Position numbers and translations under genes: made by a program
The notes under the pieces: model-generated
The model's database searches: none
What the model was told of the DNA's origin: nothing
Seen by the model: only the letters and a program-made list of their open reading frames with translations
Origin: a virus
Taxonomy: Duplodnaviria > Caudoviricetes
DNA: 61,095 bases
IMG/VR virus record: IMGVR_UViG_3300048881_000441
Coordinates: 1-61,095 of that record
Strand: one strand, 5' to 3'
In this document: in pieces, positions 9,001-32,400 of the stretch
Position numbering within the stretch: position 1 is the stretch's first letter
Layout of the letters: each line of letters starts with the position of its first letter

Positions 9001-11291
9001 GCGGGTGTAAGATGAAAAGCTGAAGAGCTTATTTCTATATTACCACCTGAACCAGATATAAATTGTGCATTGGTGGATCCGACAAAAAATGCGTCTGCAA
9101 TAACTTCAAATCTTGATGGATTAGTGCCAAATCTAAAACTACCAGACTCGCCAACCAATTCCAAACCAACACCAGAATAGTCATCACCAGAGTCTGGTAA
9201 TACTGACCCACTATATATCATAAAGCCAGTATTTGAATTATCTTGACTAGCAGATGTGAATCCTTGATATTTTACTGATCTTATAAACCCAGATGCTATT
9301 GCACCAGACCCCCCTGTTTCCGGAATTGTTGAATTTACGCCGCCAAATTGTATTCCGGCGCCAATTGAATCACCGCCAACGTATACAGAACCACCAATTA
9401 AATTATCGTTACCTAAAATATTCATATTTTCACCATCAAACTTTACGCCATCAGGATTGTCAGGTAGGGAAGTAATAACTGTTTGTGATTTATTATTGTT
9501 TATATCATAAAATTCAAAAGCAAAATCCAAATAATCTGGTCTTGTTTGCAATGGGGGTACAGGTGCAATTAATCTAATGTATTCTGGAGAAAAATTTGTA
9601 TCAGAATTTGGTTTTACAGATATTTCAGATACTGACCAGTATCCACCTGTAAATCTTAATTGTAAAACTGCTGTTCCATCGGAGTCTGGTGTAAATACAG
9701 TTTCGTATTGAGGACTTGCTGCTCCCATAACATTACCAGCAGAATTATTATGGGTAATCATACCGATAGCTCTTCCGTAACCTTGTCCAGCAAAAATATT
9801 ATTTTGTGACATACCAAATGCAGATCCGGACATATGTGCTACTGCTTTAATTGTATTTTGTTGGCCCTCAGTATTGTCAGCAACTAATTTTATTCTTAGC
9901 TTATACTCTGTATCTGCTATAAAGTCTAACTTAAATGCATCTTTTAATTGTAACTTAATCCATTCTTCATCATCATCTGAAATTAGGTCAACATTTGATC
10001 CTGACATAAAAATTGAATCTGTTAAATACTCATTTGAAGAGTACGTTTGAACAGTAGTGGCAGATTCTACGCCAAACTTACCACCTGTTGCTGTCCAATA
10101 CGTTGTTGCTACTGTATCAGAATTAAAGAACCCTATACGAGATGTTCCTGTTATTGATAGCGGATCAAGTAACAGCTCTGGCGATTCTACGGGTGTATCT
10201 ATTATTTTTGACCAGTTACCAAATGGGCCATTATTCTTTACATAGCCAGCTATTCTGTGTACATCTCCAGAAAAATTTCTTAATTTAGATAATCTAATAT
10301 CTGCAAATGACTTAAAATTTATGCTGCTAGTATCATACTCATGAAATTTTGGCCAATTAACTTTATAGCTACTTGGTCCTAATTCTGCTATACGATAAAA
10401 ACCACTTCCTGAATCATAAACACCATAAGGCTTCTGTACTTCTATTGTTTTTTTGTTAACAACATTTGAAATTCTAGATGTATATTTGGGTATAACAGTG
10501 CTACTTCCTGTAGAGAATGATAAATTTACATTCGGTGCGTCAATTGTAATAGCACCCCCAACAATAGATGAAGAAAAATCAGCATCAGCTATTGTAATAG
10601 TATATCGCGGATCTGTTGAGTCATACTCTTCATAATTTCCCATTGGATTAAAACCGTAAACCTGATCTGCATAGGTTTGTACCTCTTGATAGTTATCACC
10701 ATCGATAGAAAAATTAGATCCTTCTGTATTCTGCACAGGTGTGCCAATAATAGTTCCAACAGTTTGTTCATTTGAGCCTGTTGTTGATGCTGCCAGGGAT
10801 ACCTGACCTTTGATAATTTCAAAAACTTGTAATCTTGGTCGCTTAAAAAATCTTATCGGTCTATCATTCGGTATACTCTTATTAATTGTAATAGTTCTAG
10901 TATACTTTACATTATAAGTTCCTCTCCATTGATCAGGTATATTTTCATCAACTTTATCTGGATCTAATTCTCCTAATATTGTAAGTGTTGCAGCACCAGC
11001 AGCTGTATCTTTGTATACTTCTATACCAACCCTTACTCCGCCACTCTCTGAATAATTGTAAACTGGTTCTATATATACTGGGTATCCTAAGCTATCTACT
11101 AACTCAATTTTTAGTATAACACCATCAAGTAATGCAGGAGATCCCATTATTAACATTGAAGACTTTCCCATTGGCAGCTCAAGTGGTAGATCTGTTATAT
11201 TAAAATACTTAGATAATAGTCCTTCTTCAGTTATAAATGATTGAATTTCATCTAAATCTTGTAAGAACGCTATTTTTTGTAGTTTGGCCAT
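1..11291 (-). CDS. Giant tail/tail-fibre structural protein, >3760 aa, runs off the left edge
   Basis: ATG at 11291 (MAKLQKIAFLQDLDEIQSF...) with GGAG and ATATTTAT upstream; the same frame still reads ...AAPSASLFFVSASADPIFY at positions 3-60. The ORF track reports no ORF in this frame, as expected if there is no stop inside the window. G/S/T/A-rich with IAGW/IANF beta-repeats and in-frame tandem repeats. Confidence 0.85.
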   Translation of the reverse strand, partial: MAKLQKIAFLQDLDEIQSFITEEGLLSKYFNITDLPLELPMGKSSMLIMGSPALLDGVILKIELVDSLGYPVYIEPVYNYSESGGVRVGIEVYKDTAAGAATLTILGELDPDKVDENIPDQWRGTYNVKYTRTITINKSIPNDRPIRFFKRPRLQVFEIIKGQVSLAASTTGSNEQTVGTIIGTPVQNTEGSNFSIDGDNYQEVQTYADQVYGFNPMGNYEEYDSTDPRYTITIADADFSSSIVGGAITIDAPNVNLSFSTGSSTVIPKYTSRISNVVNKKTIEVQKPYGVYDSGSGFYRIAELGPSSYKVNWPKFHEYDTSSINFKSFADIRLSKLRNFSGDVHRIAGYVKNNGPFGNWSKIIDTPVESPELLLDPLSITGTSRIGFFNSDTVATTYWTATGGKFGVESATTVQTYSSNEYLTDSIFMSGSNVDLISDDDEEWIKLQLKDAFKLDFIADTEYKLRIKLVADNTEGQQNTIKAVAHMSGSAFGMSQNNIFAGQGYGRAIGMITHNNSAGNVMGAASPQYETVFTPDSDGTAVLQLRFTGGYWSVSEISVKPNSDTNFSPEYIRLIAPVPPLQTRPDYLDFAFEFYDINNNKSQTVITSLPDNPDGVKFDGENMNILGNDNLIGGSVYVGGDSIGAGIQFGGVNSTIPETGGSGAIASGFIRSVKYQGFTSASQDNSNTGFMIYSGSVLPDSGDDYSGVGLELVGESGSFRFGTNPSRFEVIADAFFVGSTNAQFISGSGGNIEISSSAFHLTPAGDVIMSGSVTATEGYIGDWQIIEGKLSGSNATLDADGAALYKSDAGPDSNPLDGYYIDFTPGSYYVRFGTDFAISSSGQLFASGAKIEGVLTSSEGYIGNWTIAPNTLHYFTDPTYTGLSSAGDTRFFAGATSLAASGSAPFNVKASGDITGSNVLFTGGKIAAFNISDDALYTDSFFISASATNNDLFISASNFNVSAKGDVSASDIYVSGGTTVGGDIIGGGIAGWSISATSIVDDNNIVKLEPAGAYIISSSYFQVSSAGEMTASAGKIAGFEINGTQLKQGTSFFLDGASDGSFFISSSDFQVTPTGQITASEANITGDITANTITATTAGNIANFTVASTGLTSTGVGMHPAGQAHAFTAGTGGTPAFSVTHAGQITASAANITGDIVANTITANTTGTIANFDIDSIEIASSNNKLRLKSSGQITASAAKISGSGVEIAAPSFILDTDNFDINSTIGTVALGTTPTLTGGTGVFMSSSGEFRLGDPSSFLSFVNDAFTLAGSDIEIDVTDLNISSSGFTLSSPEASMSLGNSRELLLHATGGTNNVPIIKLDGGEISASNFFVSTAGEITASAGTIGGWSMTSASIESSNKDIQIFADRLAKSDGTGGPGFVIRDQYQNDVVSIISGSLYEIGAATDEAKNDSFEDDPLNSFSSDGYHVGTSASPLDIVSWSFSAIGPVSHSITKRTGANFTQFNKALVGDSTFDVVRPGYLAPIAALSSSDASISASYAAAKIADIDENQYTLIQEVSASSQASNTWVGGNVISFAFVGKMSHSLAGAGYDRGLESQKYKVDYWSTGDSEWKQFIPASTGSDGFGAYDLATRYTSIKSSNQLPESTHKLRIVLSGSINSDIEFKTSEDLYEELKLDPIYKYMKGAGLLPEPVTGSAANVKPESAKYPYTELSFDNFRLVQDQPKIQISQTGFLLYQSENSYLKMTPAGMDMRSSNEGGMAFGKSVTGRSAMGGAGVFGRFAAPKLQAYDADPNTVEAYAFAGNTDEYARGNHAHILPFDTLDDVIGTGTLTGFTSTGIDDNADQTVITIGDDEHVTFAGNIILSGTVDGVDIFTRDAVLTSTTTTADSALQPAHTMYVGTTSIAFNRANAALTLAGITLTTPSIAAAGWENANHTHAGSTTGGQIAASAVSDFDTEVANNTAVAANTLKVSDVNHNVTTNLSVSRNGAKIDVVSSDGTNAVLPLADTDNWGVMSDEMFDEHEVNNAKVSDVNHNVTTNLSVSRDSTKIDVVSSDGTNAVLPLADTDNWGVMSDEMFDEHEVNNAKVSDVNHNVTTNLSVNRNGTKLDVISSDGTNAVLPLADTDNWGVMSDEMFDYLYAIEPSADVTDEDNVRSAGALMDDEVDADIKTLSLPASTTISTFGASLIDDVANSNARTTLGLGTAAITAATAYATSTQGSTADSALQPAHTMYIGTTSIAFNRANAALTLAGITLTTPNLGTPSTLVGTNISGTAANLTVGATTGVEAGADVTDATNVEDAGALMDSELTSIADVKALNQSVVSGATPTFTTTNFTDASNKRLMTDAQETLLDSVESGATADQTAAEILTAIKTVDGAGSGLDADLLDGQTGTYYTDFSNITVDNDEIPIAKLASDNVNFGGITVALGASDLTPAFALADATGLPISTGVSGLASGVATFLATPTSANLISAVTNETGTGALVFANSPTLVTPVLGTPGSGDFSTGTFTWPTFNQSTTGNASTVTTNANLTGDITSVGNATTIAAGVIIDADVKSDAAIAYSKLGSIPTWNQSTTGNAATVTTNANLTGDVTSVGNATTIAAGVIIDADVKSDAAIAYSKLGTVPTWNQNTTGTAANATLAAAVTVTDDSSTNTDFAIPYHNGSNALLDDTGVFTYNPSTQKLIVPNIDISGTQTFVNTATLVVTSSVTFEGESSDDFETNLGVTNPTADRTITLPNADGNVVLDTLSQTLTNKTLTTPTIASFANATHTHANAAGGGQITLGTGTTGNYVATAVAGNGIDVSGATGNVTISIGSTEVTNAMLAGSIANSKLSNSTVSYGGIQLSLGGSDATPAFALADATGLPIVAGTTGTLSVARGGTGVTTSTGTGNVVLSASPTLTGTLTADAGTFSGNIASTGTIGGVYSAEKSFTFTFLGGAETDDHQKANIELPVSGAFWGTCEISIASSYWHANAPGVVTKTFGVGLYNGAFYTNESRYSEVLGTAADHFAIGEWSFDSANFKYYVPLVHRSTTQNVCTVRVRWLGAGTVDRANMEAMTISSVYTTDTTVYAKPEVEYKRLVTFSGDINANGNIAGDGSTAISSMASLGIGSVTATGTVQAEQITSTDDITASGTVQAEHLYSTDDAQIDDDLTVSGDINANGDIVGDGSTAMSSMASLGIGTVTATGLVTSVGLTTTGAITATDQTIGSGAITSTGLLTGVGLTTTGAITATGQTIGSGAITSTGAIIGTSYTGGAISGTTGNFTGDATFSEDIILDGTGDTIYNSFISGIMGTGWRIDYDTTNGGSHLEIDNITVRNTLQTHIFQKGTVKATNGYLYISDSGVISGSVSASNYVYIIDEKSATFIADDRLWFKSADITGSGTINSVKFDIAAVTADTPQSGVTRYTVDNIEGDIDNLTVGGTVVKISGGSILLDASSANGPYMDIVNGLSVSGSATNVAVRTGNLAGITTANAAFGSSGTLSGFGMWASGSVYLEGGINATEGLIAGWSINDETLTGGNLTLDKSGKIITTDGSNERVWLGLIDANPHYGLKIFDGVGTGSENRLVELGSGDNMIAGWNLVPGNIQSNNTGGSVRLSSVSQSLTIWTGSMNEAEPKLVLGKLPLNDGTVDSPYGFAVFSGSGTVSGSEANASVLITANKARLAGWDLSPGSIKSDNTFGSVRLSSTTQALTIWTGSINEAEPKLVLGKLPLNDGTVDSPYGFAVFSGSGTVSGSEANASILITANKARLAGWDLSPGKLESGTVAVIDGNQGKIALGTNATLATSAAPSASLFFVSASADPIFY
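145..690 (-). repeat. In-frame 261-nt (87 aa) tandem repeat, ~2.1 copies
   Basis: ctcaaatcc(c)a.ccagcaagt at 151 and 412, degenerate copy at 673; unit contains LAGWDLSPG...LVLGKLPLNDGTVDSPYGFAVFSGSG. Confidence 0.9.
1685..2165 (-). repeat. Short in-frame repeat pairs (87-nt and 213-nt offsets)
   Basis: gtaattgcaccagagccgat at 1693 and 1780; ccggttgctgttactg...gaagccat at 1858 and 2071. Confidence 0.8.
3530..3880 (-). repeat. In-frame 171-nt (57 aa) tandem repeat x2
   Basis: Unit WNQSTTGNAATVTTNANLTGDVTSVGNATTIAAGVIIDADVKSDAAIAYSKLG; anchors at 3531 and 3702. Confidence 0.9.
4641..5755 (-). repeat. Dispersed near-identical ~112-nt duplication (4641-4753 and 5643-5755)
   Basis: tggtgttgttaaagtaattccagcaagtgttaatgcagcatttgctctattaaatgcaattgaagttgt... 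occurs twice, 1002 nt apart and in frame, about 3 mismatches. Confidence 0.9.
5005..5510 (-). repeat. In-frame 174-nt (58 aa) tandem repeat x3
   Basis: acattac.ccccaattatccgtatcagcta at 5021, 5195, 5369; unit KVSDVNHNVTTNLSVSRDSTKIDVVSSDGTNAVLPLADTDNWGVMSDEMFDEHEVNN. Confidence 0.92.
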
Positions 11292-11308
11292 AGAATAACT
11301 CCGTGTAG

Positions 11309-11316
11309 ATAAATAT
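11309..11316 (-). promoter_or_regulatory. Putative late promoter motif ATATTTAT (giant tail gene)
   Basis: Same 8-mer found 16-47 nt upstream of seven starts in short intergenic gaps. Confidence 0.6.
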
Positions 11317-11377
11317 TTCACAGTGTAGATTGCAATCCAAATATTTAACTAAGTTATATAAAAAGTATATAATGCTT

Positions 11378-16156: not shown

Positions 16157-16999
16157 CTAATTTAGAAAAGGTTGTATTTTTTTCATATATTTTTTAGAAT
16201 TTTTCTCAGCATACTTTTCTGCTTGCTTTTCAAATGGATTGTCCCAGTAGAAATCCTTACCCTTATCAACCATATTTTGTCCTGCTATAGTATAAGTCTC
16301 TTCATAGCCATCAGCACCTAATTTTTTTCTCATTAATGCATGATCACATTCATGCAAAATAGATTCTACAAAATCTTCTATAGAATCCTGTTGTGGATTA
16401 ATTGTTATTGTATCAGAAATCCACTCATAATCTGCCTTATTGTTTGATCGATCTATTTCTACTTTAGATTTTAATCCATGCATTTTAATTATTGCCTTTG
16501 TTACATCTATCATAACACCTTTTTTCATTTTAAAACCCTCTGTAATAAATGACTCTTTATAGTCTTTAATTTTAACCGGCATATTAAATCCAAGTGCAAT
16601 ACCCATCATCATTCTACTATTACCTGACATTAGATACATATCACTATTTTTATCACGTATCACTAGCGCAGGCGGTAGATTTTTACGATTAACAAAACCA
16701 TCTAGCAATCGTTTCCAATCTCTCCCGTAATGTTTCATTAACTTAATACATGCAGATAATCTTAATCCCTTAGAGCTATAACCTAATATCTCACCAATAT
16801 CAGTATTTTTTATTTTTACTAATTCATTAGCAGATAATATTTCAACTTTTGAATCCTTAATAAAAGATGTTATATCTTCTTCATTGGAAAATAATTTTGG
16901 TGCTGCTTCTAAAGTGCGGTCGTTATCAAAGTACTCATCATGTTCTGAATCAATCTCTTCATCAGAATATTCTCTGTAATACTTGTAATTACTTAGCAC
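16157..16999 (-). CDS. Two-domain protein: ParB/Srx-like domain + zincin HExxH domain
   Basis: LPPALVIRD...YLMSGNSRM (ParB-N-like); ILHECDH...NPFEKQA (HExxH plus downstream E); joined by ESFITE. Confidence 0.65.
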   Translation of the reverse strand: MLSNYKYYREYSDEEIDSEHDEYFDNDRTLEAAPKLFSNEEDITSFIKDSKVEILSANELVKIKNTDIGEILGYSSKGLRLSACIKLMKHYGRDWKRLLDGFVNRKNLPPALVIRDKNSDMYLMSGNSRMMMGIALGFNMPVKIKDYKESFITEGFKMKKGVMIDVTKAIIKMHGLKSKVEIDRSNNKADYEWISDTITINPQQDSIEDFVESILHECDHALMRKKLGADGYEETYTIAGQNMVDKGKDFYWDNPFEKQAEKYAEKNSKKYMKKIQPFLN

Positions 17000-17180
17000 C
17001 TTTAAATTTGCTAAAGAAGCCTTTTTTCTTCTTTTTGCCTTTTTTAATCTTCTTCTTCTTACTTTTTTTCTTTTTCTTTATTTCTTCCATTCCAGCTTTA
17101 TCGCTATACTCCATAGCGGGTGCTGGTGTAACAGATAGAAATATAAAAGCAGAGAGTAGTACTTTAAGTAGATTTTTCAT
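16989..17180 (-). CDS. Signal-peptide-bearing lysine-rich peptide
   Basis: Hydrophobic N-terminus ending PAPA, then a poly-Lys tract; RBS AAGGAG. Confidence 0.7.
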   Translation of the reverse strand: MKNLLKVLLSAFIFLSVTPAPAMEYSDKAGMEEIKKKKKSKKKKIKKGKKKKKGFFSKFKGAK

Positions 17181-17395
17181 TATAGTATCTCCTTCATTTT
17201 CTTATCAATGGCACCTATTATGCCACTAAAATCTTTATATGCTTTTTTAATTACCCCAGGTTTCTGTTTTTTGATACCTTGAAGTAGTCGTTTAAAATTT
17301 GTAACCATGTTGCTTCCATATATTTGTAATAATACATAAGCACGCTCGTCATCATCCATTTCGCGAAGCTTTTGTATTGCTTCAGATCTTTTCAT
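17180..17395 (-). CDS. Hypothetical protein
   Basis: Coupled to both neighbours by stop/start overlaps. Confidence 0.7.
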   Translation of the reverse strand: MKRSEAIQKLREMDDDERAYVLLQIYGSNMVTNFKRLLQGIKKQKPGVIKKAYKDFSGIIGAIDKKMKEIL

Positions 17396-18051
17396 TATCT
17401 ATCTTTATAATAATCTTCGAAATCTTTTAAGGCACTCCGCATATCAAACTTTTGTGTTTGTGTATTGATATTCTTTTTAATTGCATAAAGAAAAGCAACA
17501 CGCAAACCTGGAGCATTAAAACTGGACATCATGCGATTAATATTATCAACAGCATTTGAAACTCCCTCAATAGTATTTCTTAATGGCTTTCTAAGTTTTT
17601 TAGCTGTCTTCATATCAGCATCAGCAACACCATCTTCCTCTTCCATTCTCAAAATGTTCCTTTTAAGCTCAGCTTTAATGCGATCCCGTATTGCAGATCT
17701 AAATTTACTTTCCTTCATTTTAATTTCCTCTGTCATGCCAATTAAACGATATTTTTCAAGAGTGCTCACCACTTCGTCATCAGTTATTGATAAGTCTTGT
17801 GATAATGATTGAATAATCTCATAACCTCTAGCACCTGCCTTTTTAGCACGTTTTATCATGCCCTTTAGTTGTGATTTTGATAATTTGATCCCGGGCTTAG
17901 GAAGCGCTTCATCTACAGATTCATTTGCTTTTTTTATTAATTTTGCAATTTTAAGAAGTGTTTCTTTATCTTTTTTAGAGATCATATCAAGTTGTCGATC
18001 TTTTGCAATTGTTTGTAATGCTTTTTCGTATGCTGCTGTAGATTCTAACAT
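17395..18051 (-). CDS. Modular putative head-internal protein
   Basis: ANESVDE linker; Lys/Glu-rich helical modules. Confidence 0.6.
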   Translation of the reverse strand: MLESTAAYEKALQTIAKDRQLDMISKKDKETLLKIAKLIKKANESVDEALPKPGIKLSKSQLKGMIKRAKKAGARGYEIIQSLSQDLSITDDEVVSTLEKYRLIGMTEEIKMKESKFRSAIRDRIKAELKRNILRMEEEDGVADADMKTAKKLRKPLRNTIEGVSNAVDNINRMMSSFNAPGLRVAFLYAIKKNINTQTQKFDMRSALKDFEDYYKDR

Positions 18052-18053
18052 TA

Positions 18054-18473
18054 TTATCTCACCTTCTTTAATAATTTGTCTACTGCCATAAGCAGCTTCT
18101 TTGACATTTTAGGATTCTCAAAAGCATCATCAGCTTCATTAGAATAGACAGCATCTATTAAATAATTTACATCTTGCTTTGCGTGATTTAAATGACTTAT
18201 GAGAGGTGAAGCAACTTCTTTTACAGATTCATTTGCAGCTTGAAGTGCTGCTTTTACTTTAGGATCATTAGATAAACCTTTTTTAATTTTATCAATAAGC
18301 TTGACGGCTTTTGTCATATTACCAGCGTGTTTCTCAGCCAGTCCAATTGCATACTTAATCATATTTTTAGAAAAGCCTTCATTAGTTACAAAAGCTTTAG
18401 CAGGATGATAATCAGAGATATGACCCTTCTGTTTTTTACTATACAAATGCGTATAAAATTCTTTTAATATCAT
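18054..18473 (-). CDS. Modular putative head-internal protein
   Basis: MILKEF start; VTNE and ANESVKE linkers. Confidence 0.6.
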   Translation of the reverse strand: MILKEFYTHLYSKKQKGHISDYHPAKAFVTNEGFSKNMIKYAIGLAEKHAGNMTKAVKLIDKIKKGLSNDPKVKAALQAANESVKEVASPLISHLNHAKQDVNYLIDAVYSNEADDAFENPKMSKKLLMAVDKLLKKVR

Positions 18474-19006
18474 GACTTTAATTTTTCATATTTTTTAAAT
18501 TTTGTTAAAACTTCAAGTGGCTTTTTCCACATGTGGATGAATCCATTGAACGTACCCTGACCTACATCTTTTCTAATTGCCAGAGCCCAAGCTTTTTTAT
18601 TTTTATCAGGAATAGGCTTTATTTTCTTTATCTCTTTTACAAAAGTTTGATAAGAATCTATAAAAGCGCCAAGATTAAGATCAGCTTCACCGTGTTCCTC
18701 TCCACCAAAATCCTTGTAAGGATCTAATTCTTCTTTGCGTAATTTGGATTTAAATTTTACTATGTCTCTGACTAAGTATCTCATTCCATAATGTTTTCTT
18801 TCACCGGGGCTTAATCTTTTATTGCTTCGTTTGGCCTGATTTTTAGCTTCATCTTCTGAATCGAATGAATATCTTATTGGCAAACCATCTACAGCCCATC
18901 CTCTTCCACGCGAACCAATGCTACCACCCTTCAATACTACAGCCCATTGTTTTTTTATATCGGGCTCATTTTGATATTCTGTTAATAAATCTTTTAATTT
19001 GATCAT
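18470..19006 (-). CDS. Putative head-internal protein (start revised to MIKLKDLLTE)
   Basis: ATG at 19006 lies just after the upstream stop, has GGAG upstream and gives the shared MIKLKD N-terminus. Confidence 0.65.
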   Translation of the reverse strand: MIKLKDLLTEYQNEPDIKKQWAVVLKGGSIGSRGRGWAVDGLPIRYSFDSEDEAKNQAKRSNKRLSPGERKHYGMRYLVRDIVKFKSKLRKEELDPYKDFGGEEHGEADLNLGAFIDSYQTFVKEIKKIKPIPDKNKKAWALAIRKDVGQGTFNGFIHMWKKPLEVLTKFKKYEKLKS

Positions 19007-19008
19007 AT

Positions 19009-19581
19009 CTAGCTCCAGTGTCTCATAATCCACGCATGAATTTCTTTTGCTTCTTTATCAGACAATGCTCTAAATACTTCTTCCAATACTTTTTTCTCAG
19101 ATCCAAGTTGATCAATAAGTTCATCCATCCAACCTAATCTTTTATTTACGCCTTCTTTTATGGTGCCTTCTATGGCTTGACCAGATTTTATTTTATTTAC
19201 CATTGATACTATTTTTCCTGGTTCAATATCTAATGCATCTATTATACCGGCTAAAACTGCCATTTTTCTTTTACGATTTAGGCCTGTTTGCTCTAAGGCA
19301 TCGACAAACTTTTCCATAAATCTCTTTACATTTCCAGGTAACGAAGTTCCACCTTCATTTACGGATTCGGATTTCCATCCTTTTTTATCTGCCATTTTTT
19401 GCAGCTTAATCCAAGAATCACGAAACTGACCTTTCATTTTACTCCATTGGGTTGGATCGGTTTTCTCTATGTATTTAAAAAATCTCCACACACCTTCCCA
19501 ATTAGGTTCTACATTAATAGTTCTAGCTTCATTTAGCTTCTTTATGATAATGTGTTTTGCTCTTTTAAAAGTATTATTCAC
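19009..19581 (-). CDS. Modular putative head-internal protein
   Basis: KLNE, SESVNE and EGTIKE linkers separate ~50-67 aa modules. Confidence 0.6.
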   Translation of the reverse strand: MNNTFKRAKHIIIKKLNEARTINVEPNWEGVWRFFKYIEKTDPTQWSKMKGQFRDSWIKLQKMADKKGWKSESVNEGGTSLPGNVKRFMEKFVDALEQTGLNRKRKMAVLAGIIDALDIEPGKIVSMVNKIKSGQAIEGTIKEGVNKRLGWMDELIDQLGSEKKVLEEVFRALSDKEAKEIHAWIMRHWS

Positions 19582-19594
19582 TATATAATCTCAA

Positions 19595-19867
19595 TTAAGT
19601 TACGTTTAACTTTTGAATTTCTTCTTTAGCTATACCCTTAATAATGCCTCTAAGCTTATTGAGTTTTGACTCCTTAGCATCATCACCTTTATAATTCTTT
19701 TCTATATAATTAAAAAATTCTTTTTTCTTATCAGTGTCAAGTTCAGCAGGAGACTTTGCATCAAACTTAGCTAATGCGTCTTTAAAGAATTTTTGATATT
19801 CCTCTGCACCACCCTCTGCGATGTTAGTAACAATATGCTTTATGATTGCTTCGTTATAATAGGACAT
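19595..19867 (-). CDS. Putative head/prohead core-associated protein
   Basis: YQKFFKDALAKFDAKSPAELDTDKKKEFFNYIEKNY resembles (from recall) a segment of T4-like phage head-region proteins; own ATATTTAT motif and GGAG RBS. Confidence 0.5.
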   Translation of the reverse strand: MSYYNEAIIKHIVTNIAEGGAEEYQKFFKDALAKFDAKSPAELDTDKKKEFFNYIEKNYKGDDAKESKLNKLRGIIKGIAKEEIQKLNVT

Positions 19868-19887
19868 ACTATAATCTCCATTTTCTT

Positions 19888-19895
19888 ATAAATAT
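19888..19895 (-). promoter_or_regulatory. Putative late promoter motif ATATTTAT
   Basis: ~21 nt upstream of ATG 19867. Confidence 0.6.
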
Positions 19896-19916
19896 CACGA
19901 TATTAAAAATATATGC

Positions 19917-20243
19917 TTAATCATCAGCGTGTTCTAACAATTTCGTATCATCTTCTGCATTATTGAACCAAAAATCAATTACCTTAGCAAATGAACCAAC
20001 AAATCCACCTAACATCAATAATAAAATTTCTTTCCAGCCACCCTGTACATCAACTCCATTGCTCATAAAATAAATCATAAGTGCAAGAATAACTGCAAAT
20101 AAAGCGACAACAACAATACTAATATACCATTTTCTTGCTTGCCTAAATTTAATAATCCCAAGCAAATCTAAATTAATTTCGTGTTTCCTGTCCTCATGTG
20201 AAGATCCTTCTTTCATCTTTGATACTACTTTATCTATAGCCAT
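19917..20243 (-). CDS. Two-TM holin-like membrane protein
   Basis: Two hydrophobic helices; ILLLMLGGFVGSFAKVIDFWF followed by a charged tail. Confidence 0.55.
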   Translation of the reverse strand: MAIDKVVSKMKEGSSHEDRKHEINLDLLGIIKFRQARKWYISIVVVALFAVILALMIYFMSNGVDVQGGWKEILLLMLGGFVGSFAKVIDFWFNNAEDDTKLLEHADD

Positions 20244-20521
20244 TATTTGTCTCCTACGTAATCACTATCATATACATAACCAAACCAGCCACCGTAACCT
20301 CTATCAACATCGCGGGTCAAATCTTCCCAATCCTTAAACGTATTATAGAGTGACGGCTCACTTGAACTTGGATTATGTGTTTTCTTAAACATTGCATTTA
20401 ATTTTTTCATCCTCTTGACAACATCATCGGCCATCGCTTCCATTTTTTTGACATCACTTTTTTTCGCAACATCTTCTGTCAATGGCTTAATGTTTCCTGA
20501 TAAAAAGGTTTTTAATTTCAT
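20243..20521 (-). CDS. Putative head-internal protein
   Basis: MKLKTFL...PLTE N-terminal motif. Confidence 0.55.
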   Translation of the reverse strand: MKLKTFLSGNIKPLTEDVAKKSDVKKMEAMADDVVKRMKKLNAMFKKTHNPSSSEPSLYNTFKDWEDLTRDVDRGYGGWFGYVYDSDYVGDK

Positions 20522-21456
20522 TTCAATTCTCTCTCGGCATATGGAATTGCGCTGGGTTGCCAGATATAATCTTTACCATCTTTCCAACCAATCATCTCTC
20601 CGGACATACCATTAATAATATCGTATTTTGGTGTCTTGCCGGCCAGTATCTCTTTCATACTTTTTGCTATAGCTGCTTTAAGTTCTTTTTTTGTTTTAGC
20701 GTGGACTTCATTACCGCGTACTATATCTTCATTTATGGATTCATAATATCGTGGTACTCCAATCATATCATACATAATACCCGCTATATCATAAAGACCC
20801 TTTATCAATTTAATAGTTTCTTTAGCATCTTCTTTTTTTGCTGCTATTTGTAATTTTTTTACTACCTTATCCAAATGTTTCAATCCTTCTGATATTTTTT
20901 TAAATCCCGCATCGTTTAAATCTCCGAATGCTTCATTTACGGATTCTTCTGTAACAAGACTAATCATTTTTTTAATTGGAAGTTTTTCAAGTTTCTTTCG
21001 ATTAGATACACTTGAATTTCCATAGTCTAAAATTGCTCTAGCAGTTTGAGGATTTATTTTTACTCCATCCATATTTTTAGCTCCTGACCTTGAAACACTT
21101 ATTAAAAATGTTTTCAATTGTCCCCAAGAAATAGCTTCATTTACGGATTCTGCCCACGGAGCATTTCTAATTATTGCTTTCATCCACTCTATTATCTTAC
21201 TTTGTTTATCAAGTCGCCCAATATTCACAGATTTATTGCCAGCGTGATAAAATACACTGCCATACTTGTCAACACTCATTGAGAGCGTTGCATTTTTAGT
21301 TTTAAATTCTCCGGACCAAATTTCATTATGACCTTTTTTAGTAGCCTTGAAACTCTTTACTCGTAAGCCAGCTTTTTTCCACATCTGCATAAGCCCAGCA
21401 TTAATTTTTAAATCCTGATTTGGAGTTAATTCTTTGGCTTCTTTTGTATTATTCAT
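20518..21456 (-). CDS. Four-module putative polyprotein (107/68/68/69 aa) with ES(V/I)NE linkers
   Basis: Linkers end at residues 107, 175 and 243; modules show no mutual similarity. Confidence 0.65.
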   Translation of the reverse strand: MNNTKEAKELTPNQDLKINAGLMQMWKKAGLRVKSFKATKKGHNEIWSGEFKTKNATLSMSVDKYGSVFYHAGNKSVNIGRLDKQSKIIEWMKAIIRNAPWAESVNEAISWGQLKTFLISVSRSGAKNMDGVKINPQTARAILDYGNSSVSNRKKLEKLPIKKMISLVTEESVNEAFGDLNDAGFKKISEGLKHLDKVVKKLQIAAKKEDAKETIKLIKGLYDIAGIMYDMIGVPRYYESINEDIVRGNEVHAKTKKELKAAIAKSMKEILAGKTPKYDIINGMSGEMIGWKDGKDYIWQPSAIPYAERELK

Positions 21457-21878
21457 TTTAATTTTATGCCTGCTTTTTTAAGATGTGAGTGTATTCCTAA
21501 CATCCAACTTCTAAATACAGCATCCATATCGGCTTTGCCATCATACTTATTCATAATTTTGAATATATCATTATTAACTTTATTTAAAGCCCTAAACATA
21601 TCATTGTCAGGACTCTCTTCTATTGTTTCATCTAAAGCTGCATTACTCTGGTGCCCTTTATTCCAGCTACTCATTAATCCTATAAACGGAATAACTTGTT
21701 TTTTAAAATTCTTTAAAATTATTTTTTCATCTACTTTTTCACCGCTTATCTCAGTAGCAGACTTAGCTACATCCATCGTTGCATTTGCAAACTTTTTATA
21801 CTCACCATAAAACTTCTCGTAAGCTTCGCTATAATCTCTTTTTTTACCTTCTTTCATTATATCTTTTAATTTTATCAT
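21453..21878 (-). CDS. Putative head-internal protein
   Basis: MIKLKDIMKE N-terminus; LDETIEE linker. Confidence 0.6.
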   Translation of the reverse strand: MIKLKDIMKEGKKRDYSEAYEKFYGEYKKFANATMDVAKSATEISGEKVDEKIILKNFKKQVIPFIGLMSSWNKGHQSNAALDETIEESPDNDMFRALNKVNNDIFKIMNKYDGKADMDAVFRSWMLGIHSHLKKAGIKLK

Positions 21879-22300
21879 CTCGCTACCTGTTTTACTTTTT
21901 CAATTGAACGACCAGCAAAATAAGCTGCATATACAGTCATTAATAAAGTTTGATATACAGGTACATATGCTGCACCTATTGTGAAAGCTTCCCCACCTAT
22001 TTGTAGGTTACCATCAAAAATACTTAATACAGTAAACACAGCAGTCAAGAAAATTAATGTTAGCGGCCTGATATTTTTACTCAGCCAACTTCCGTGTTTC
22101 ATATCAGCTTCCCATCTTGCAGATACTTGAGCTTGAGCAGCTTGTTCTGCTTCAGCTAATATTTTTGTAATTCTTTCTTTAGCTTCTGCTTTTTCTTCAC
22201 CTGAAGTATGTAAATTATCAATAATTCCACCCACGTCTTTTAAAGTATCTCCTCCCAATAAACTTCCGGCAGCGCTAGTTAATGTACTTAGTAATCCCAT
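21875..22300 (-). CDS. GTA-type 3TM holin-like protein
   Basis: LHTSGEEKAEAK...VSARWEADM...SWLSKNIRPL, TM helices and YFAGRSIEK match my recollection of the GTA_holin_3TM family. Confidence 0.75.
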   Translation of the reverse strand: MGLLSTLTSAAGSLLGGDTLKDVGGIIDNLHTSGEEKAEAKERITKILAEAEQAAQAQVSARWEADMKHGSWLSKNIRPLTLIFLTAVFTVLSIFDGNLQIGGEAFTIGAAYVPVYQTLLMTVYAAYFAGRSIEKVKQVAR

Positions 22301-22311
22301 AACTTATCTCC

Positions 22312-22647
22312 TTAATACTCAAAACCAAAGGGTTCAGAATTGCTTCCACCCTTTATTGCATACCACACATCTTTAATTCTGTAGTACCAAAATTTATCTG
22401 TTTCTAAAATCCAAAACTCACCCTTGGGTGTATTGAACGATTTATTGGGTCCAAATTTAACTGTCATTGGTGCACCATCATCCCACATCTTTTTAGTTAT
22501 TTGTCCCTTGACATTTGAACCATCACCTGTAGCTTTATAAATACGTGACCCAGGATAATCTCCTTTCAAGCTTTCTAACCCTTCTGGCACGCCCTCTTTT
22601 AATACTGACTCAGCTAGCATGCCTATATTATCTCTTAGCTTAATCAT
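22312..22647 (-). CDS. Putative head-internal protein
   Basis: MIKLRD...AESVLKE N-terminus. Confidence 0.6.
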   Translation of the reverse strand: MIKLRDNIGMLAESVLKEGVPEGLESLKGDYPGSRIYKATGDGSNVKGQITKKMWDDGAPMTVKFGPNKSFNTPKGEFWILETDKFWYYRIKDVWYAIKGGSNSEPFGFEY

Positions 22648-22648
22648 C

Positions 22649-22936
22649 TTATTTAGGATTCTGCACGGGGTCTGGATAGAATCTGTCCAATTCGTCCCAC
22701 CATTCTTTAAAAGCTTTTAGTGCGTTCCTATCACCGTGTTGTTTAATTGCCATGTGTGCCCCTTGTAGTGCATCATGTAACTTATCATAAGCCTTATCTA
22801 AGTCTGAGGCTTCGTTTATTTCACCTTCTTTTAATTTTTTATAATCATTAAGGGTTGGCAATTTATCACCAAACTTTCTATTTCCCCAATATTTTGTAGT
22901 GAATGATTCTTTAAGTAAATCTTTCAATTTTATCAT
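22649..22936 (-). CDS. Putative head-internal protein
   Basis: MIKLKDLLKE N-terminus; EGEINE linker. Confidence 0.6.
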   Translation of the reverse strand: MIKLKDLLKESFTTKYWGNRKFGDKLPTLNDYKKLKEGEINEASDLDKAYDKLHDALQGAHMAIKQHGDRNALKAFKEWWDELDRFYPDPVQNPK

Positions 22937-23307
22937 TAGAATACGTCTCCTGCTATACCTGCATCAATTGCTTTTTTAATATCTTTTGGTGTTATATCGA
23001 TCATACCGTCCATATCTGCTTTCCAAATATCTGCCTTATCACCGTTAATAAATAACGCAATAGAAGGAAAATTTCTCAATCTTAATTTTTTACAAATCTT
23101 TTTAGTATTTTCAGACATAGCTTTTATTATAATTGCTTCTTCATGACCGGAAACACTTTCAACATACTCCATGCCATCGCTTTCTGCCCATTTAGATGTA
23201 AATACAACTATAACCACACCATCACTAATTTTTTCTTTAAAACTCTTATCATTAACCTGCCCAAATAAGACACCTAACAATAATAGAGGCAAAATTATCT
23301 TTTTCAT
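22936..23307 (-). CDS. Exported thioredoxin-fold protein lacking CxxC
   Basis: Signal peptide; VNDKSFKEKI..GVVIVVFTSKW, ...LRLRNFPSIALFING (cis-Pro loop); WAESD replaces WCxxC. Confidence 0.75.
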   Translation of the reverse strand: MKKIILPLLLLGVLFGQVNDKSFKEKISDGVVIVVFTSKWAESDGMEYVESVSGHEEAIIIKAMSENTKKICKKLRLRNFPSIALFINGDKADIWKADMDGMIDITPKDIKKAIDAGIAGDVF

Positions 23308-29456: not shown

Positions 29457-32400
29457 TTATTCCCCACTCAAATCGACAGTTAAATTACTATTGCCACCTT
29501 TTTTATCAACTGTGACTGAGTATGGATTTGTTTCATATATTTCTACTGCCTGAAAAACACCGTCGGGTGATTTAGCTCCATCATTTTTACATCCTTCATA
29601 TGCTAATCTAAAAAGACCTGTATGACTATTATAAACAGATTCATATTCGCTTGCAACTAGCGATGATGAATATGCTAGACCTAATGATGCGCTTAATGAT
29701 GAAGAATAAAAAGGTATTGTCTCTTGATTAAACGATGATTTTTTAGAACCAGTAACCATAGGTTGAAAATTTTCAAAGAATACAGCAGCTCCCCCACCCA
29801 TATAAACTTTAGAATCAATATAGTCACGAGCTTCTGATAGCGGATCATCAAGTGGATCTTTGTTAAGTCCTTTTAATGTGGGCATATAAGTCATTGGCCC
29901 AAGTTCTGAATTAAATTTTTGGGTTTCATATTCATCTCTACTTGACTTGATTAAACCAGCTGATTGTAATGCTATCGTTGCATAATCATGTTGTGATGAT
30001 GTTATTTTGCTCTCAAGTGAAGTATCATAAACTACACCAGTTCTAAATTCGTAAGAACTTTCAAATATTGGGACAACTGATGCAGTTGCTGATGAATAAT
30101 TATTTAAACCGGTGGGCTCTGGGTATATTGCATTAATTTCTGCTGTTTTTGCTATATCTGTAAATATAGGGGGCGCGCCCATAACAACTTTTGGTCTTTC
30201 TAAAAGATGTGATTCTATTAATAAGCCAATATTCTTTTTAGCACGAGCCGGTGATAATTTTCTTATATGATCAAAAAGACTAAGATCATAATATTTTATT
30301 AATTTAATATAATCCCAAAAGCTTGATTGTGTTGTCCATTTTTTCCAATATGTGTCTGTGATTCCATCTAATTTTCCGTGGGTATACCGGTCCTCGTACA
30401 TATCTCGCGGATCTCCAAGATACGATCCAAAATCTAGATCAGCTAATGATAACATGATGTCTTCATTAATAACGTCAGTTGGCGCAAAGAATATTCCCAG
30501 CTTATTAGAATCTAATCCTGCATTATCAAATGAACTTATTTCTACTCTTTCTGTTGGACTTAGTTGTGCTGGTGCACCATCTTGTGTTTTTAGTTGAGCA
30601 CTTTCAAGTCTTATTTTATTAGCTTGAGAGCCAAACCCTATTTTTGGTACAAATGCTTTTTGTCTATCTGAAACATTACTAAAATTAATCTCATCTGCAA
30701 AACCAGAACCTGTAACATATATTTGTCCATCTGTGAATGTGTAATCTCTTAATCCTTTTGGGCTAGAATTTAAATTAATATAATCGTCCATAGATAATCT
30801 AAAACTTAAGTCATAGTATGATGAGCTAGGATTATTTCCATTGACTGCTTTTGGAGCAGCAACATGATTCCAAAATGCATCTTCCTTAAGTGGTGTTGAC
30901 CAATATCTAAATTCCATCATAGATCCACTAAATTGTTCACCTATACTACCATCTGCATTTCCACCAAGATACCATCTATTCGCTGTAGCACTACCTGTTG
31001 TGTACCATCCTGATAATGTACTTCCTGATACTGTCATACTTCCTGATTCTTTTATTTTAATTCGATCCATTCCGGCATCGTAATATCCAAGAAACATATC
31101 AAAACTTTGTGTAGTAGCAGACAAATCATTATCAAAGTATTGATCAGTATAACTATCATCCATGGAGCCTGTTCGTCTTCTAACCATTAATGACCAGTAC
31201 TCGTTATTATAAATTCCCTGATCAGTAATACTCATACTTTGCACACTGTCAGATCCGCTTACAAAAAAGTTAATTTGACCCTTGCCATCAATAGCCTGAT
31301 CAGCAGGCCCTAGCACTGCTGTAGCAATTGCACCACTGCCATCAGGAATATTCTGATGTATTGTTATTGTGGGTACGCTAGTGTAACCAAAACCACCATT
31401 TGTCACAATAATTCCTGTAATTCTACCATTTGTAGGATTTACAGTCGGCGTTCCCGTGGCTCCTGTTCCTCCTCCACCAGAAAATGTTACCCAAGTTTCT
31501 AATGGCAAATAATCTGATCCTACCGCGTCCATAGTCACACTACTTATAGGAGACCCAACTGTTGTCTTAAGATAAATTGCCGCCTCTGTTTTGCCACTGT
31601 TATCAAGTTTATTTGCTAAAATTTGATTTGATTCTTTGGCAACTTTAAATCTCATTTCAATAGTATCAGGTGCTTTTTCTTTTGATGTATGATACCACGG
31701 CACTTGAATAGATTGTCCTCCCTTAAAATCTAATGCCTTAGTAAATTTCTTTTTAATTTCAAAATCAGGTTTACCTGTTGGTCTTGGCCCACCGTATTCT
31801 TGAATTCTTAATATTGATGTTGGAATACCGTATGCTGCAATCAATGATTTTAAACTTTGTTTTGTTCCTTTTGACTTGAGCATATAAGGCATTGTTGCTA
31901 ATATTCTATTCCATATTTCTCGCGTTACATCTTTCTGAGATTTTTTAGTATATCTAATATTATAAATTCCCGTTCTAGAACCTGATTCTGCTAAACCTAA
32001 GTGATATTGGGGAAGCGACACAAGATCTCTACCTTCTATCATATTAAAACCAAGAGACTTTGCTACTGGCTCAACTAGCGCTTGTGATATTCCTTTTGTT
32101 ACATCTTCACTTCTATCGTGTACATCTGACAATGCTTTTATATGCGTCCAAATAATATCATAATGGTGTCCCATCATATCCATAAAATGTAGAAACTCTA
32201 TATTTTCCTTATCAGTATTGATATGCTCTGGTAAAAGATTGACTAATCTATTTCTATTATTTCTGTCATAAAGACGTGCTTTTGCAATTGAACTATCATA
32301 CCATGTTATGAATGCTGAACTAGTAACAGAGTATAACTTATAAGGATTTGTTAGTGTGCCATCTCCGGAGCTTTTAGGAAAAGTATTTGCATAAAATTCC

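Follow-up and report, generated by a model that had tools for sequence, protein, structure and literature searches.

The window, by which we mean the whole 61,095-nucleotide stretch of DNA that was analysed, is a 61-kb fragment (CheckV completeness 32%) from an uncultured marine T4-type myophage. A cluster of cargo genes occupies approximately 17.4-22.9 kb of the window on the minus strand. It is flanked by lysis-like and replication genes, and the head module is not its setting. The genes and their parts are listed below; L058 is, with L059, the closest relative of the window.

17395..18051, minus strand: two-part ORF, 218 aa; linker ESVDE at 17908-17922, Ser codon TCT
18054..18473, minus strand: two-part ORF, 139 aa; linker ESVKE at 18216-18230, Ser codon TCT
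18470..19006, minus strand: single-cargo gene; leader MIKLKDLLTE at 18977-19006, body 18475-18976 replaced in L058
19009..19581, minus strand: two-module ORF, 190 aa; leader, 'ARTINVEPNWEG' module, ESVNE and a second module
19528-19542, minus strand: KKLNE, end of the leader of ORF 19009-19581
19369-19527, minus strand: 'ARTINVEPNWEG' module of ORF 19009-19581, 53 aa
19353..19368, minus strand: exact 16-mer linker in ORF 19009-19581 (ESVNE codons at 19354-19368)
20518..21456, minus strand: polyprotein ORF, 312 aa; leader, four modules and stop codon
21439-21456, minus strand: leader of the 312-aa ORF, MNNTKE, 6 residues
21136-21438, minus strand: module 1 of the 312-aa ORF, 101 aa, ends in ESVNE
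21135..21150, minus strand: linker 1, exact 16-mer (ESVNE and the first base of the next codon)
20932-21135, minus strand: module 2 of the 312-aa ORF, 68 aa
20931..20946, minus strand: linker 2, exact 16-mer, ESVNE; breakpoint relative to the closest relative
20728-20931, minus strand: module 3 of the 312-aa ORF, 68 aa
20734..20929, minus strand: body of module 3, swapped in L058 for an unrelated 283-nt module
20727..20742, minus strand: linker 3, one-mismatch copy, ESINE; a contig diverges at 20723
20521-20727, minus strand: module 4 of the 312-aa ORF, 69 aa, followed by the stop codon
21453..21878, minus strand: leader gene with a two-module body; leader MIKLKDIMKE at 21849-21878
22312..22647, minus strand: gene with a longer leader, MIKLRDNIGMLAESVLKE
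22649..22936, minus strand: gene with leader MIKLKDLLKE (22907-22936)

The linkers are copies of one short repeat. The 16-mer GAATCCGTAAATGAAG is present exactly at 19353-19368, 20931-20946 and 21135-21150, with one mismatch at 20727-20742 and with two mismatches at 17907-17922 and 18215-18230, in all cases on the minus strand. The copies at 20931 and 21135 are identical over 18 nt (AGAATCCGTAAATGAAGC). The motif search thus bears out the repeat as the initial annotation described it, including the longer identity and the imperfect copy. The six matches with up to two mismatches compare with 0.04 expected, and none of 100 shuffles reached six. All six are in frame and read E-S-(V/I)-x-E, three as ESVNE and one each as ESINE, ESVDE and ESVKE, and they are spread over four adjacent genes. 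The 16-mer holds stop codons in both remaining frames, as can be read from its sequence.

The linkers at 20727, 20931 and 21135 are 204 and 204 nt apart, as had been noted, and the modules of 68, 68 and 69 aa that they set off are unrelated. Indeed, the four modules of the 312-aa ORF have no mutual similarity beyond the linker (blastp, best E 0.64). The exact spacing was taken at first for an architecture; we find that it is not a design feature. Inter-linker modules of related loci range from 29 to 294 aa (median 75.5 in 138 unique modules), and none of 65 adjacent pairs elsewhere are of equal length, where a random pair would be equal with P = 0.013. A 204-nt periodicity is thereby ruled out as a rule, and the spacing is a coincidence.

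The exact 16-mer is present in at least 126 IMG/VR stretches. Among the matches listed, the ESVNE frame is open for at least 60 codons in 125 of 128 unique contexts, and no copy was seen between genes. Searches of 50,697 phage records with positions 17000-22000 (megablast) and with the 312-aa polyprotein (tblastn) gave no match, and no cultured phage carrying these polyproteins was found there; one module alone matches small podovirus ORFs. The head modules of the two closest cultured phages, Flavobacterium phage immuto and Microcystis phage Mel-JY01, encode no ESVNE polyprotein, and the MIKLK(D/E) leader is absent from both phages. A full-text literature search, with a cover that lies outside subscription journals, found no publication on ESVNE-linked phage polyproteins and nothing for the leader string MIKLKD.

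Several observations mark the modules as independent units. AlphaFold2 pLDDT falls below 50 at residues 1-6, 107-109, 159-180 and 237-249 of the 312-aa protein, which are the leader and all three linkers. HMMER matches span single modules (query residues 1-109, 102-167, 154-250 and 235-312), and 57 of the 60 matched proteins are phage polyproteins, each matching single modules. The other three (P0053, P0061 and P0062) are repeat proteins that have neither phage linkers nor leaders, and two of them look like eukaryotic leucine-rich-repeat proteins; they were judged spurious and left out of the relative count. The modules are small, with pI 8.2-9.9. At the thresholds used, PHROG, Pfam and PADLOC returned no family for any cargo gene. 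Foldseek found nothing in the PDB at E <= 0.001 (best 0.18), matches in BFVD are uncharacterised viral proteins only, and the ESM Atlas gave no usable feature match for the modules.

Four neighbouring genes of the window start with a second conserved junction element, the leader MIKLKDLLxE of 10 residues. In the form M-I-K-L-K-(D/E)-(L/I)-(L/I/M)-x-E it is found on these four genes and on 40 unique ORFs in related loci, and the protein bodies behind it are mutually unrelated. Modules that one phage places behind a Met-leader come after ESVNE in another. For example, both body modules of gene 21453-21878, whose inner junction reads ...AALDE, are found behind ESVNE in other proteins. Leader and linker both end in hydrophobic-x-Glu. 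By this sequence evidence, leader and linker are evidently interchangeable before modules and are equivalent junction elements.

The initial annotation held that synonymous positions of the linker, including Ser TCC, are retained, and this is so. TCC makes up 4.3% of the 1511 Ser codons in minus-strand ORFs of the window, and with window codon usage the chance of ESVNE being spelled in exactly these codons is 0.84%. Linkers outside the seed selection (ESVKE, ESINE, ESVDE and others) use TCC in 34 of 56 cases, compared with 6.3% in the remainder of their ORFs (p = 6.5e-27); the identity is not due to codon bias. At position P3 of these non-seed linkers, 49 of the 52 Val/Ile codons are GTA or ATA, and linker variants (V to I, N to K/D) still hold TCC and third-position A. 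At loci fetched by the protein sequence of one module alone, the linker Ser is TCC in 16 of 21 cases and the exact 15-mer is present in 9 of 13 ESVNE. Among 191 linker Ser codons, TCG occurs four times and AGC once, and AGY accounts for only four, which points to descent and not convergence. Judged from its codons, the linker DNA is evidently homologous by descent and kept at silent positions. We had expected saturated silent sites in modules beside frozen linkers. This contrast is contradicted by one module family in which silent-site identity is 82-89% inside the module and 99% and 87% in its linkers. The module is near the linker level, so that silent-site freezing is not unique to the linker there, and the argument is instead based on the identity between linkers of unrelated modules.

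Comparison of the window with L058/L059 locates exchanges directly. The sequences are 95-100% identical (99.2% over 16220-18474, 95.6% over 18977-20733 and 100% over 20930-22281), with two cassettes replaced, 18475-18976 and 20734-20929. The latter is bounded by linkers 2 and 3; identity to L058 is 100% through linker 2 and divergence follows directly after. In the other, the leader is kept and the body is changed, the swap starting just past MIKLKDLLxE. Thus, both replaced segments start or end at a linker or leader.

Logan contigs of four runs from four studies give the same picture; the parts that they do not cover were left uninterpreted. About 12 of 24 listed loose contig ends fall at linker or leader edges. 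Contigs diverge at 21156 by linker 1 (two runs), at 20931 by linker 2 (three runs), at 19350 and 19368 by linker 19353-19368, and at 18977 and 19008 by gene 18470-19006. In two runs, the end of that gene is fused in frame to ESVNE and module 2. Also, blastn matches of eight loci end at 18212-18220, the edge of the ESVKE linker. Mapping of HSP end points of the window genes was noisy and partly informative. No linker-to-linker deletion join was seen in the contigs of the four runs, and contigs cannot show rare events. The 'ARTINVEPNWEG' module is present at 24 loci (14 distinct) with many different neighbours, approximately 10 upstream and 9 downstream in the distinct loci, and with joins that are in every case direct at x-E. 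Across 28 junctions around it, the final Glu is the only invariant residue.

Breaks between relatives and between metagenome contigs thus fall on the repeats. Given this, and with codon bias excluded, we conclude that the linkers are joints of in-frame cassette exchange, as first proposed. The further proposal, that the repeats act as microhomology crossover points, keeps its original standing: crossover by microhomology may occur within the 15-16 nt of the linker, and selection for in-frame joins at domain borders would be expected to give the same breakpoint picture. Linker DNA is barely more alike when one flank is shared and has no clear flank asymmetry; the slight gain in likeness does not locate the crossover site.

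The window, at 32% completeness, includes neither a protease gene nor a capsid gene. Of 10 related records searched, 4 have a Peptidase_S77 match above the Pfam cut-off, among them the sole complete one (216 kb), and the six records in which it was not found are fragments of 21-70% completeness. The baseplate protein of the complete relative is 54-61% identical to that of the window. In this genome, a 675-aa ESVNE polyprotein is encoded with the prohead protease gene on one side and the scaffold and capsid genes on the other. Genes for gp23-type capsid proteins are also present in related contigs. At about residue 60, the capsid protein of the complete relative has Q-(L/I)-I-(D/S)-E followed by A/N/S; Q-(L/I)-I-x-E is the predicted propeptide site, where T4-type propeptides end. 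According to the part of PMC9026906 that deals with it, residues 1-10 make up the capsid targeting sequence (CTS) of T4; residues 8 and 10 govern processing, and the cut is after Glu. The linker fits this rule of the T4 protease gp21 and is a putative cut site, consistent with the dual role, recombination and protease site, first suggested for it. The predicted sites in the capsid and scaffold proteins lack the E-S of the linker, which the protease rule thus leaves unexplained. The motif TATAAATA, which we take to be the T4 late promoter motif, occurs 15 times where 12.4 are expected and is not enriched.

On balance, we favour, with modest confidence, the explanation that the cluster is a head cargo system of cleavable, swappable cassettes similar to the internal proteins (IPs) of T4. 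T4 processes IPI-III and Alt and ejects them with its DNA. The cluster would encode small, mostly basic, mutually unrelated modules, each placed behind a leader or linker. The precursors may be loaded into the prohead core, where the head protease would cut after the Glu of every leader and linker; the freed modules would then be separate internal proteins that are ejected with the DNA. An anti-defence role of this cargo is plausible. Modules would be gained, lost and exchanged in frame at the linker, both between genes and between phages. Silent sites are most likely kept because exchange runs through the short shared linker DNA, and linkers that match the majority would have the most exchange partners.

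A bolder form of this explanation is held tentatively, as a possibility that falls short of being probable. The linker may be a translated recombination joint by which a large ocean clade of T4-type phages pools injectable mini-proteins that are loaded into the head automatically and released by the head protease. The 15-nt linker would be the coding counterpart of an integron attachment site, so that a module flanked by majority linker DNA could be moved in frame into the polyprotein of any member. Silent positions would be frozen by frequency-dependent selection, because a match to the majority gives access to the pool. If so, one short element ties together delivery, processing and evolvability.

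It is unlikely that the proteins remain uncleaved, with ESVNE an inherited inter-domain spacer and the modules cooperating in one chain. Such a chain would agree with the AlphaFold2 model, in which part of linker 1 lies in a helix (H102-124), and with the E-S residues that fall outside the protease rule at the capsid site. However, modules also stand alone behind Met-leaders ending in hydrophobic-x-Glu, and a final Glu that alone is invariant at the 28 junctions fits a cut site better than a spacer. The order and company of modules are nearly free, which argues against cooperating domains.

Quite unlikely, in our view, is cleavage in the cytoplasm by another host or phage protease, with release of early or accessory proteins that stay outside the head. 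The placement of the window cluster outside the head module is consistent with this, as is an HExxH ORF (16157-16999) at the downstream end of the cluster that could serve as the protease. This ORF has no family match, however, and was rejected as a general processing partner because it lies beside polyprotein loci in near-identical L058 alone among the fetched loci. The polyprotein of the complete relative, in contrast, sits between prohead protease and scaffold, and the 10-residue leader resembles the T4 CTS in its hydrophobic residue 8 and its Glu 10.

The 16-mer could also be primarily a nucleic-acid signal (a homing or recombination target, an RNA processing site or a rare-codon pause that keeps the folding of modules apart), with the peptide secondary. 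We consider this improbable. The retained silent positions, including rare TCC, would be expected of such a signal, as would nonsynonymous variants that keep TCC and third-position A, and the stop codons in the other two frames fit it as well. However, 125 of 128 contexts place the motif in a single coding frame and none places it between genes (among the matches listed), no candidate enzyme travels with it, and KKLNE, FVVKE and RLKKE, with quite different DNA, serve the same module edge. A pause would allow other rare Ser codons, yet TCG and AGC are barely used. Finally, although the relatives are all metagenome assemblies, codon bias, chance or chimeric assembly across a shared repeat can hardly account for six matches where 0.04 are expected and a spelling that codon usage predicts at 0.84%, for identical architectures that recur in contigs of different samples (e.g., L219-L222), or for junction places shared by contigs of four runs from four studies, and assembler k-mers are commonly longer than the shared 16-18 nt.

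T4, with its three or four internal proteins, is the classic example of a phage that injects proteins along with its DNA to overcome the defences of the host. Under the head cargo explanation, the cluster suggests that abundant ocean phages scale this idea up to dozens of unrelated mini-proteins, in cleavable chains with a fixed trading joint. Should both cleavage and packaging prove true, whole repertoires of injected proteins could be read straight from metagenomes by means of the leader and linker rule. The rule would also point to a large stock of possible anti-defence or takeover proteins with folds not yet known, and would supply a scheme, taken from nature, by which one gene fills a capsid with several proteins. 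The frozen silent sites are a rare, testable case of selection on DNA in a coding linker.

Several features of the cluster are shared with T4 IPI, IPII, IPIII and Alt, as these are treated in sections 2.5-2.6 of PMC9026906 and in parts of PMC3012670 and PMC5694885. These are a short leader (of 10 residues in the window and 10-19 in T4) ahead of small, unrelated and mostly basic proteins, a hydrophobic residue 8 and Glu 10 as processing determinants (here by motif fit), a cargo set that is highly variable between related phages, and a gp21-family protease (here found in related genomes). Unlike in T4, cargos appear to be strung into polyproteins of up to about ten modules in which the internal linker would repeat the cut site, unrelated modules from many phages share conserved linker DNA, and the leader sequence differs from that of T4. 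No homology of the cargo to T4 IPs was detected with PHROG, Pfam or PADLOC at the thresholds used; the resemblance is thus in design only. In the giant phages phiKZ, 201phi2-1 and SPN3US, many head and ejection proteins are substrates of a protease related to gp21, which cuts after Glu in a very short motif and at multiple sites per substrate (parts of PMC5694885 and PMC9026906). Those substrates lose propeptides, whereas a candidate chain of unrelated mature proteins joined by a DNA-conserved linker is not described in these parts of the two papers.

Exchange at conserved motifs has precedents in T-even and other T4-type phages. In the gp38 adhesin, glycine-rich motifs separate hypervariable segments inside one ORF and exchange occurs within or near the motifs, as described in part of PMC3157838. 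These motifs form the core of a single folded domain, whereas the linkers described here part independent units and look like cut sites. The PeSLs of T4-type phages flank variable genes in hyperplastic regions. They have been proposed, and partly shown, to be recombination sites for cassette insertion, deletion and replacement between close relatives (Arbiol et al. 2010, PMC2839356), in a paper that also ties such elements to the IP loci that vary among T-even phages. Like the linker, a PeSL is a short conserved sequence that bounds cassettes swapped between close relatives. PeSLs, as described there, are intergenic, approximately 100 bp long and consist of a promoter and stem-loop, whereas the linker is 15-16 nt, translated, within an ORF and frame-keeping. 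The stretch shared between copies, at 15-18 nt, is short for homologous exchange.

The genes of this region encode unrelated modules joined in frame by a linker conserved as DNA. The linker is the five-residue sequence E-S-(V/I)-x-E, encoded by the 16-mer GAATCCGTAAATGAAG or near copies of it. We identified exact copies at 19353, 20931 and 21135 and near copies at 20727 (one mismatch) and at 17907 and 18215 (two mismatches each). The first four of these had been reported in the initial annotation, and the motif count in the window bears them out. Six matches were observed versus 0.04 expected, and 0 of 100 shuffles gave six. All are in frame and read ESVNE (three copies), ESINE, ESVDE and ESVKE; they are carried by four adjacent ORFs.

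Selected ORFs of the window (the minus strand carries nearly all genes)
20518-21456, minus: polyprotein ORF with in-frame 16-mer copies; 6-residue leader, then modules of 101, 68, 68 and 69 residues
19009-19581, minus: linker-bearing ORF, in-frame 16-mer copy
18054-18473, minus: linker-bearing ORF, in-frame 16-mer copy
17395-18051, minus: linker-bearing ORF, in-frame 16-mer copy
16157-16999, minus: HExxH ORF of 280 aa, motif HECDH; downstream end of the cargo cluster
3-11321, minus: giant ORF of at least 3773 aa, runs off the contig end; no Pfam family above threshold
29457-36788, minus: giant ORF of 2443 aa, adjoins the baseplate genes; no Pfam family above threshold

Outside the linker ORFs of the window, ES(V/I/L)xE is no more frequent than background: the 2443-aa ORF and an SbcC-like ORF have one each, and two lie in antisense frames. 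Every copy of the linker DNA, including that at 21135-21150, has a stop in both other frames (TAA in +1, TGA in +2), so an out-of-frame join of modules would end at the next linker.

The four modules of the polyprotein are mutually unrelated, as previously noted for the last three; blastp alignments are limited to the linker. Module pI ranges from 8.2 to 9.9. The AlphaFold2 model, for which 49 aligned sequences were the input, has a mean pLDDT of 73.5 and is confident for module 1 (85-97). Values fall below 50 at residues 1-6, 107-109, 151-153, 159-180 and 237-249. Apart from 151-153, these stretches coincide with the leader and linkers 1-3; thus, in the model, the modules look like separate folding units. 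A HMMER search with the polyprotein against 1.84 billion representatives gave 60 matches, three of which were set aside as spurious (repeat proteins). The 57 kept align to single modules (query 1-109, 102-167, 154-250 and 235-312), which occupy varied positions within proteins 75-630 aa long. Module 4 (20521-20727, ending ...YAERELK) is C-terminal in every carrier protein of the HMMER set (P0009-P0051). It was also found as a stand-alone protein of 87-103 aa with other leaders in front. Repeated weak matches to module 3 (AFGDLNDAGFKKISEGLKH...; P0053, P0062) look like eukaryotic leucine-rich-repeat NLR proteins and were judged to be chance resemblance.

That such a chain of folding units persists as an uncleaved multi-domain protein is unlikely, and a gp21-type prohead protease is encoded in the clade. 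The window, which is the entire contig of this genome (61,095 bp; G+C 34%; 32% complete by CheckV), has no head genes in its 61 kb. Its baseplate protein is 54-61% identical to the counterpart in a complete 216-kb relative, and, among cultured phages, Microcystis phage Mel-JY01 and Flavobacterium phage immuto come closest both for this protein and for the relative's protease. Peptidase_S77, the family of T4 gp21, scored above cut-off in four of ten related records, the complete one included; the six records without it are 21-70% complete. The Gp23 capsid family was identified in four of five records. In the complete genome, the protease gene is followed by small genes and then by a 675-aa polyprotein that contains ESVKE once and ESVNE four times; after these come, in order, a leader gene, an S21-like gene and the genes for an acidic scaffold-like protein and the capsid protein. 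Near residue 60, the capsid proteins have the motif Q-(L/I)-I-(D/S)-E with A, N or S directly after it.

The S21-like (ribosomal protein) gene lies between the prohead protease and scaffold genes in both the 216-kb relative (L002 5805-5999) and Mel-JY01 (L238 8149-8376; annotated RpsU). The first module of the 675-aa polyprotein (L002 2023-2240) has homologues, at 45-55% identity, among the small hypothetical ORFs in T7-like cyanopodoviruses (P-SSP7, P-SSP2, S-RIP1 and others; records H16-H37). Therefore, some modules are shared beyond T4-type phages.

We propose that the polyprotein precursors enter the prohead, that the gp21-type protease would cut after each junction Glu, that the basic modules would remain with the DNA and be ejected together with it, and that modules would be exchanged through the short shared linker DNA. 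As a whole, this chain stands at a little better than even. Cleavage of the polyprotein with modules that are not packaged is distinctly unlikely. One paper reportedly treats anti-restriction roles of injected phage proteins.

The proposed cut sites include the N-terminal leader. The start M-I-K-L-(K/R)-D-... opens four genes of the window (starts 22936, 22647, 21878 and 19006), three of which have the 10-residue form MIKLKD(L/I)(L/M)(K/T)E; it also opens 40 unique ORFs in the fetched flanks, where other leader types occur too. The same modules follow the leader in one phage and ESVNE in another, which argues that leader and linker, both ending in hydrophobic-x-Glu, are equivalent junctions. 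Acidic scaffold-like ORFs (L130-L133) start with MD(D/E)LLK(E/D)A...KAVRE, and DLLKE is present in three of the four relatives examined (compare the leader MIKLKDLLKE). The cargo leader may be a mimic of the N-terminus of the scaffold itself. Two other minus-strand genes are interspersed among those with leaders and linkers (21875-22300 and 22936-23307): one of the holin family (phrog_3427, E 6e-27) and one thioredoxin-like, the product of which has an N-terminus resembling a signal peptide.

Codon bias, which the initial annotation had proposed to test, is not the explanation for linker identity. TCC accounts for 4.3% of 1511 Ser codons in the minus-strand ORFs of the window, and the probability of the exact spelling of ESVNE given codon usage is 0.84%. 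Because loci fetched by the exact 16-mer are biased by construction for codon counts, two less biased samples were used. One consists of variant linkers from the same ORFs (ESVKE, ESINE, ESVDE and others), beyond the reach of seed selection; they have TCC in 34 of 56 cases, versus 6.3% outside the linkers of these ORFs (p = 6.5e-27). At their P3, GTA and ATA make up 49 of 52 Val/Ile codons; in the background, GTT and ATT are equally common. Among loci retrieved via the protein sequence of one module alone (24 loci, 14 distinct), 16 of the 21 ES-type linkers use TCC, and 9 of 13 ESVNE have the exact 15-mer. Ser is hardly ever encoded by AGY (4 of 191), which points to linkers as copies of one ancestral DNA piece rather than convergent peptides. 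In a control, the 53-aa module family of ORF 19009-19581, codons are 82-89% identical where the residue is the same, and the flanking linkers 99% and 87%. Since module codons are nearly as alike as linker codons, the simple form of the silent-site argument is weakened; it draws its strength from linkers that are identical between unrelated modules rather than from a difference to the adjacent module. That the 16-mer is primarily a nucleic-acid signal is very improbable.

The 53-aa module opens with 12 residues (ARTINVEPNWEG; window 19492-19527; loci L212-L235) that are invariant in 15 sequences, the module bodies of which drop to 47% identity. This start is also nearly invariant as DNA (AGA, ACT and ATT, each 15/15).

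Modules recombine freely at leader and linker. The closest relative, a 46.6-kb contig (L058/L059), matches the window at 99.2% identity over 16220-18474, at 95.6% over 18977-20733 and at 100% over 20930-22281, and two segments are replaced. In the first, a 283-nt module of unrelated sequence takes the place of module 3 (window 20734-20929); the two contigs agree perfectly up to the end of linker 2 (20931), diverge immediately past it and agree again a few codons beyond the next linker. In the second, the body of gene 18470-19006 is exchanged and the leader retained. The steps in identity shift at the swap sites as well. We also compared Logan contigs (four runs from four studies) to window 18300-21600. 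Contigs diverge at 19350, 19368, 19534, 20723, 20931 (three runs), 21156 (two runs), 18977 and 19008 (two runs), and approximately 12 of 24 loose ends among those listed (65 further exist) fall at linker or leader edges. Many breakpoints thus lie at the repeats, as had been predicted. In two runs, a contig fuses the end of gene 18470-19006 to ESVNE and module 2; the fusion passes through nine letters and keeps the frame. These contigs showed no deletion join from one linker to another. The HExxH ORF, for which PHROG, Pfam and PADLOC gave no match, was ruled out as a general companion of polyprotein loci; of the loci fetched, the near-identical L058 alone has it.

The exact 16-mer is present in at least 126 IMG/VR stretches. 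Among the matches listed, the ESVNE frame is open for at least 60 codons in 125 of 128 unique contexts, and many loci have two to five copies. Artefact or chance has a very small probability. Inter-linker modules range from 29 to 294 aa (median 75.5; 138 unique modules), and none of 65 adjacent pairs is equal in length. Therefore, the 204/204-nt spacing, earlier taken as architecture, is a coincidence of two modules within the modal size class. The 53-aa module, in 14 distinct loci, has approximately 10 different upstream and 9 different downstream neighbours, always joined right at its edges. Upstream of it, the junctions read ESVNE, ESVKE, ESINE, EWVNE, KKLNE, DGFDE, KKMKE, FVVKE and RLKKE, with the final Glu as sole invariant residue; one is a Met-leader, MVKLKESVKE.

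In T4, the capsid targeting sequence (CTS) is the first 10 residues of internal protein IPIII, residues 8 and 10 govern processing, and cleavage comes after Glu; the internal proteins of T-even phages vary, and the CTS alone is conserved (PMC9026906, PMC3012670, PMC5694885). The design is the same here, although T4 has single cargos and no homology to the window proteins. PeSL cassettes are likewise exchange joints, but are intergenic and ~100 bp (PMC2839356). The gp38 glycine-rich motifs are likewise conserved within an ORF with exchange, but inside one domain (PMC3157838). No mention of either the linker or the leader was found in the searched literature (subscription journals lie outside its coverage). 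We conclude that this is a real and widespread version of the T4 internal-protein system, apparently unpublished. Modules are exchanged at its junctions; the polyproteins would be cleaved there and the modules packaged. The stretch 18300-21600 is present wholly or largely in runs X1-X24 (hydrothermal vent and marine metagenomes, 20 studies), and at least half of its sampled words were found in nine runs.
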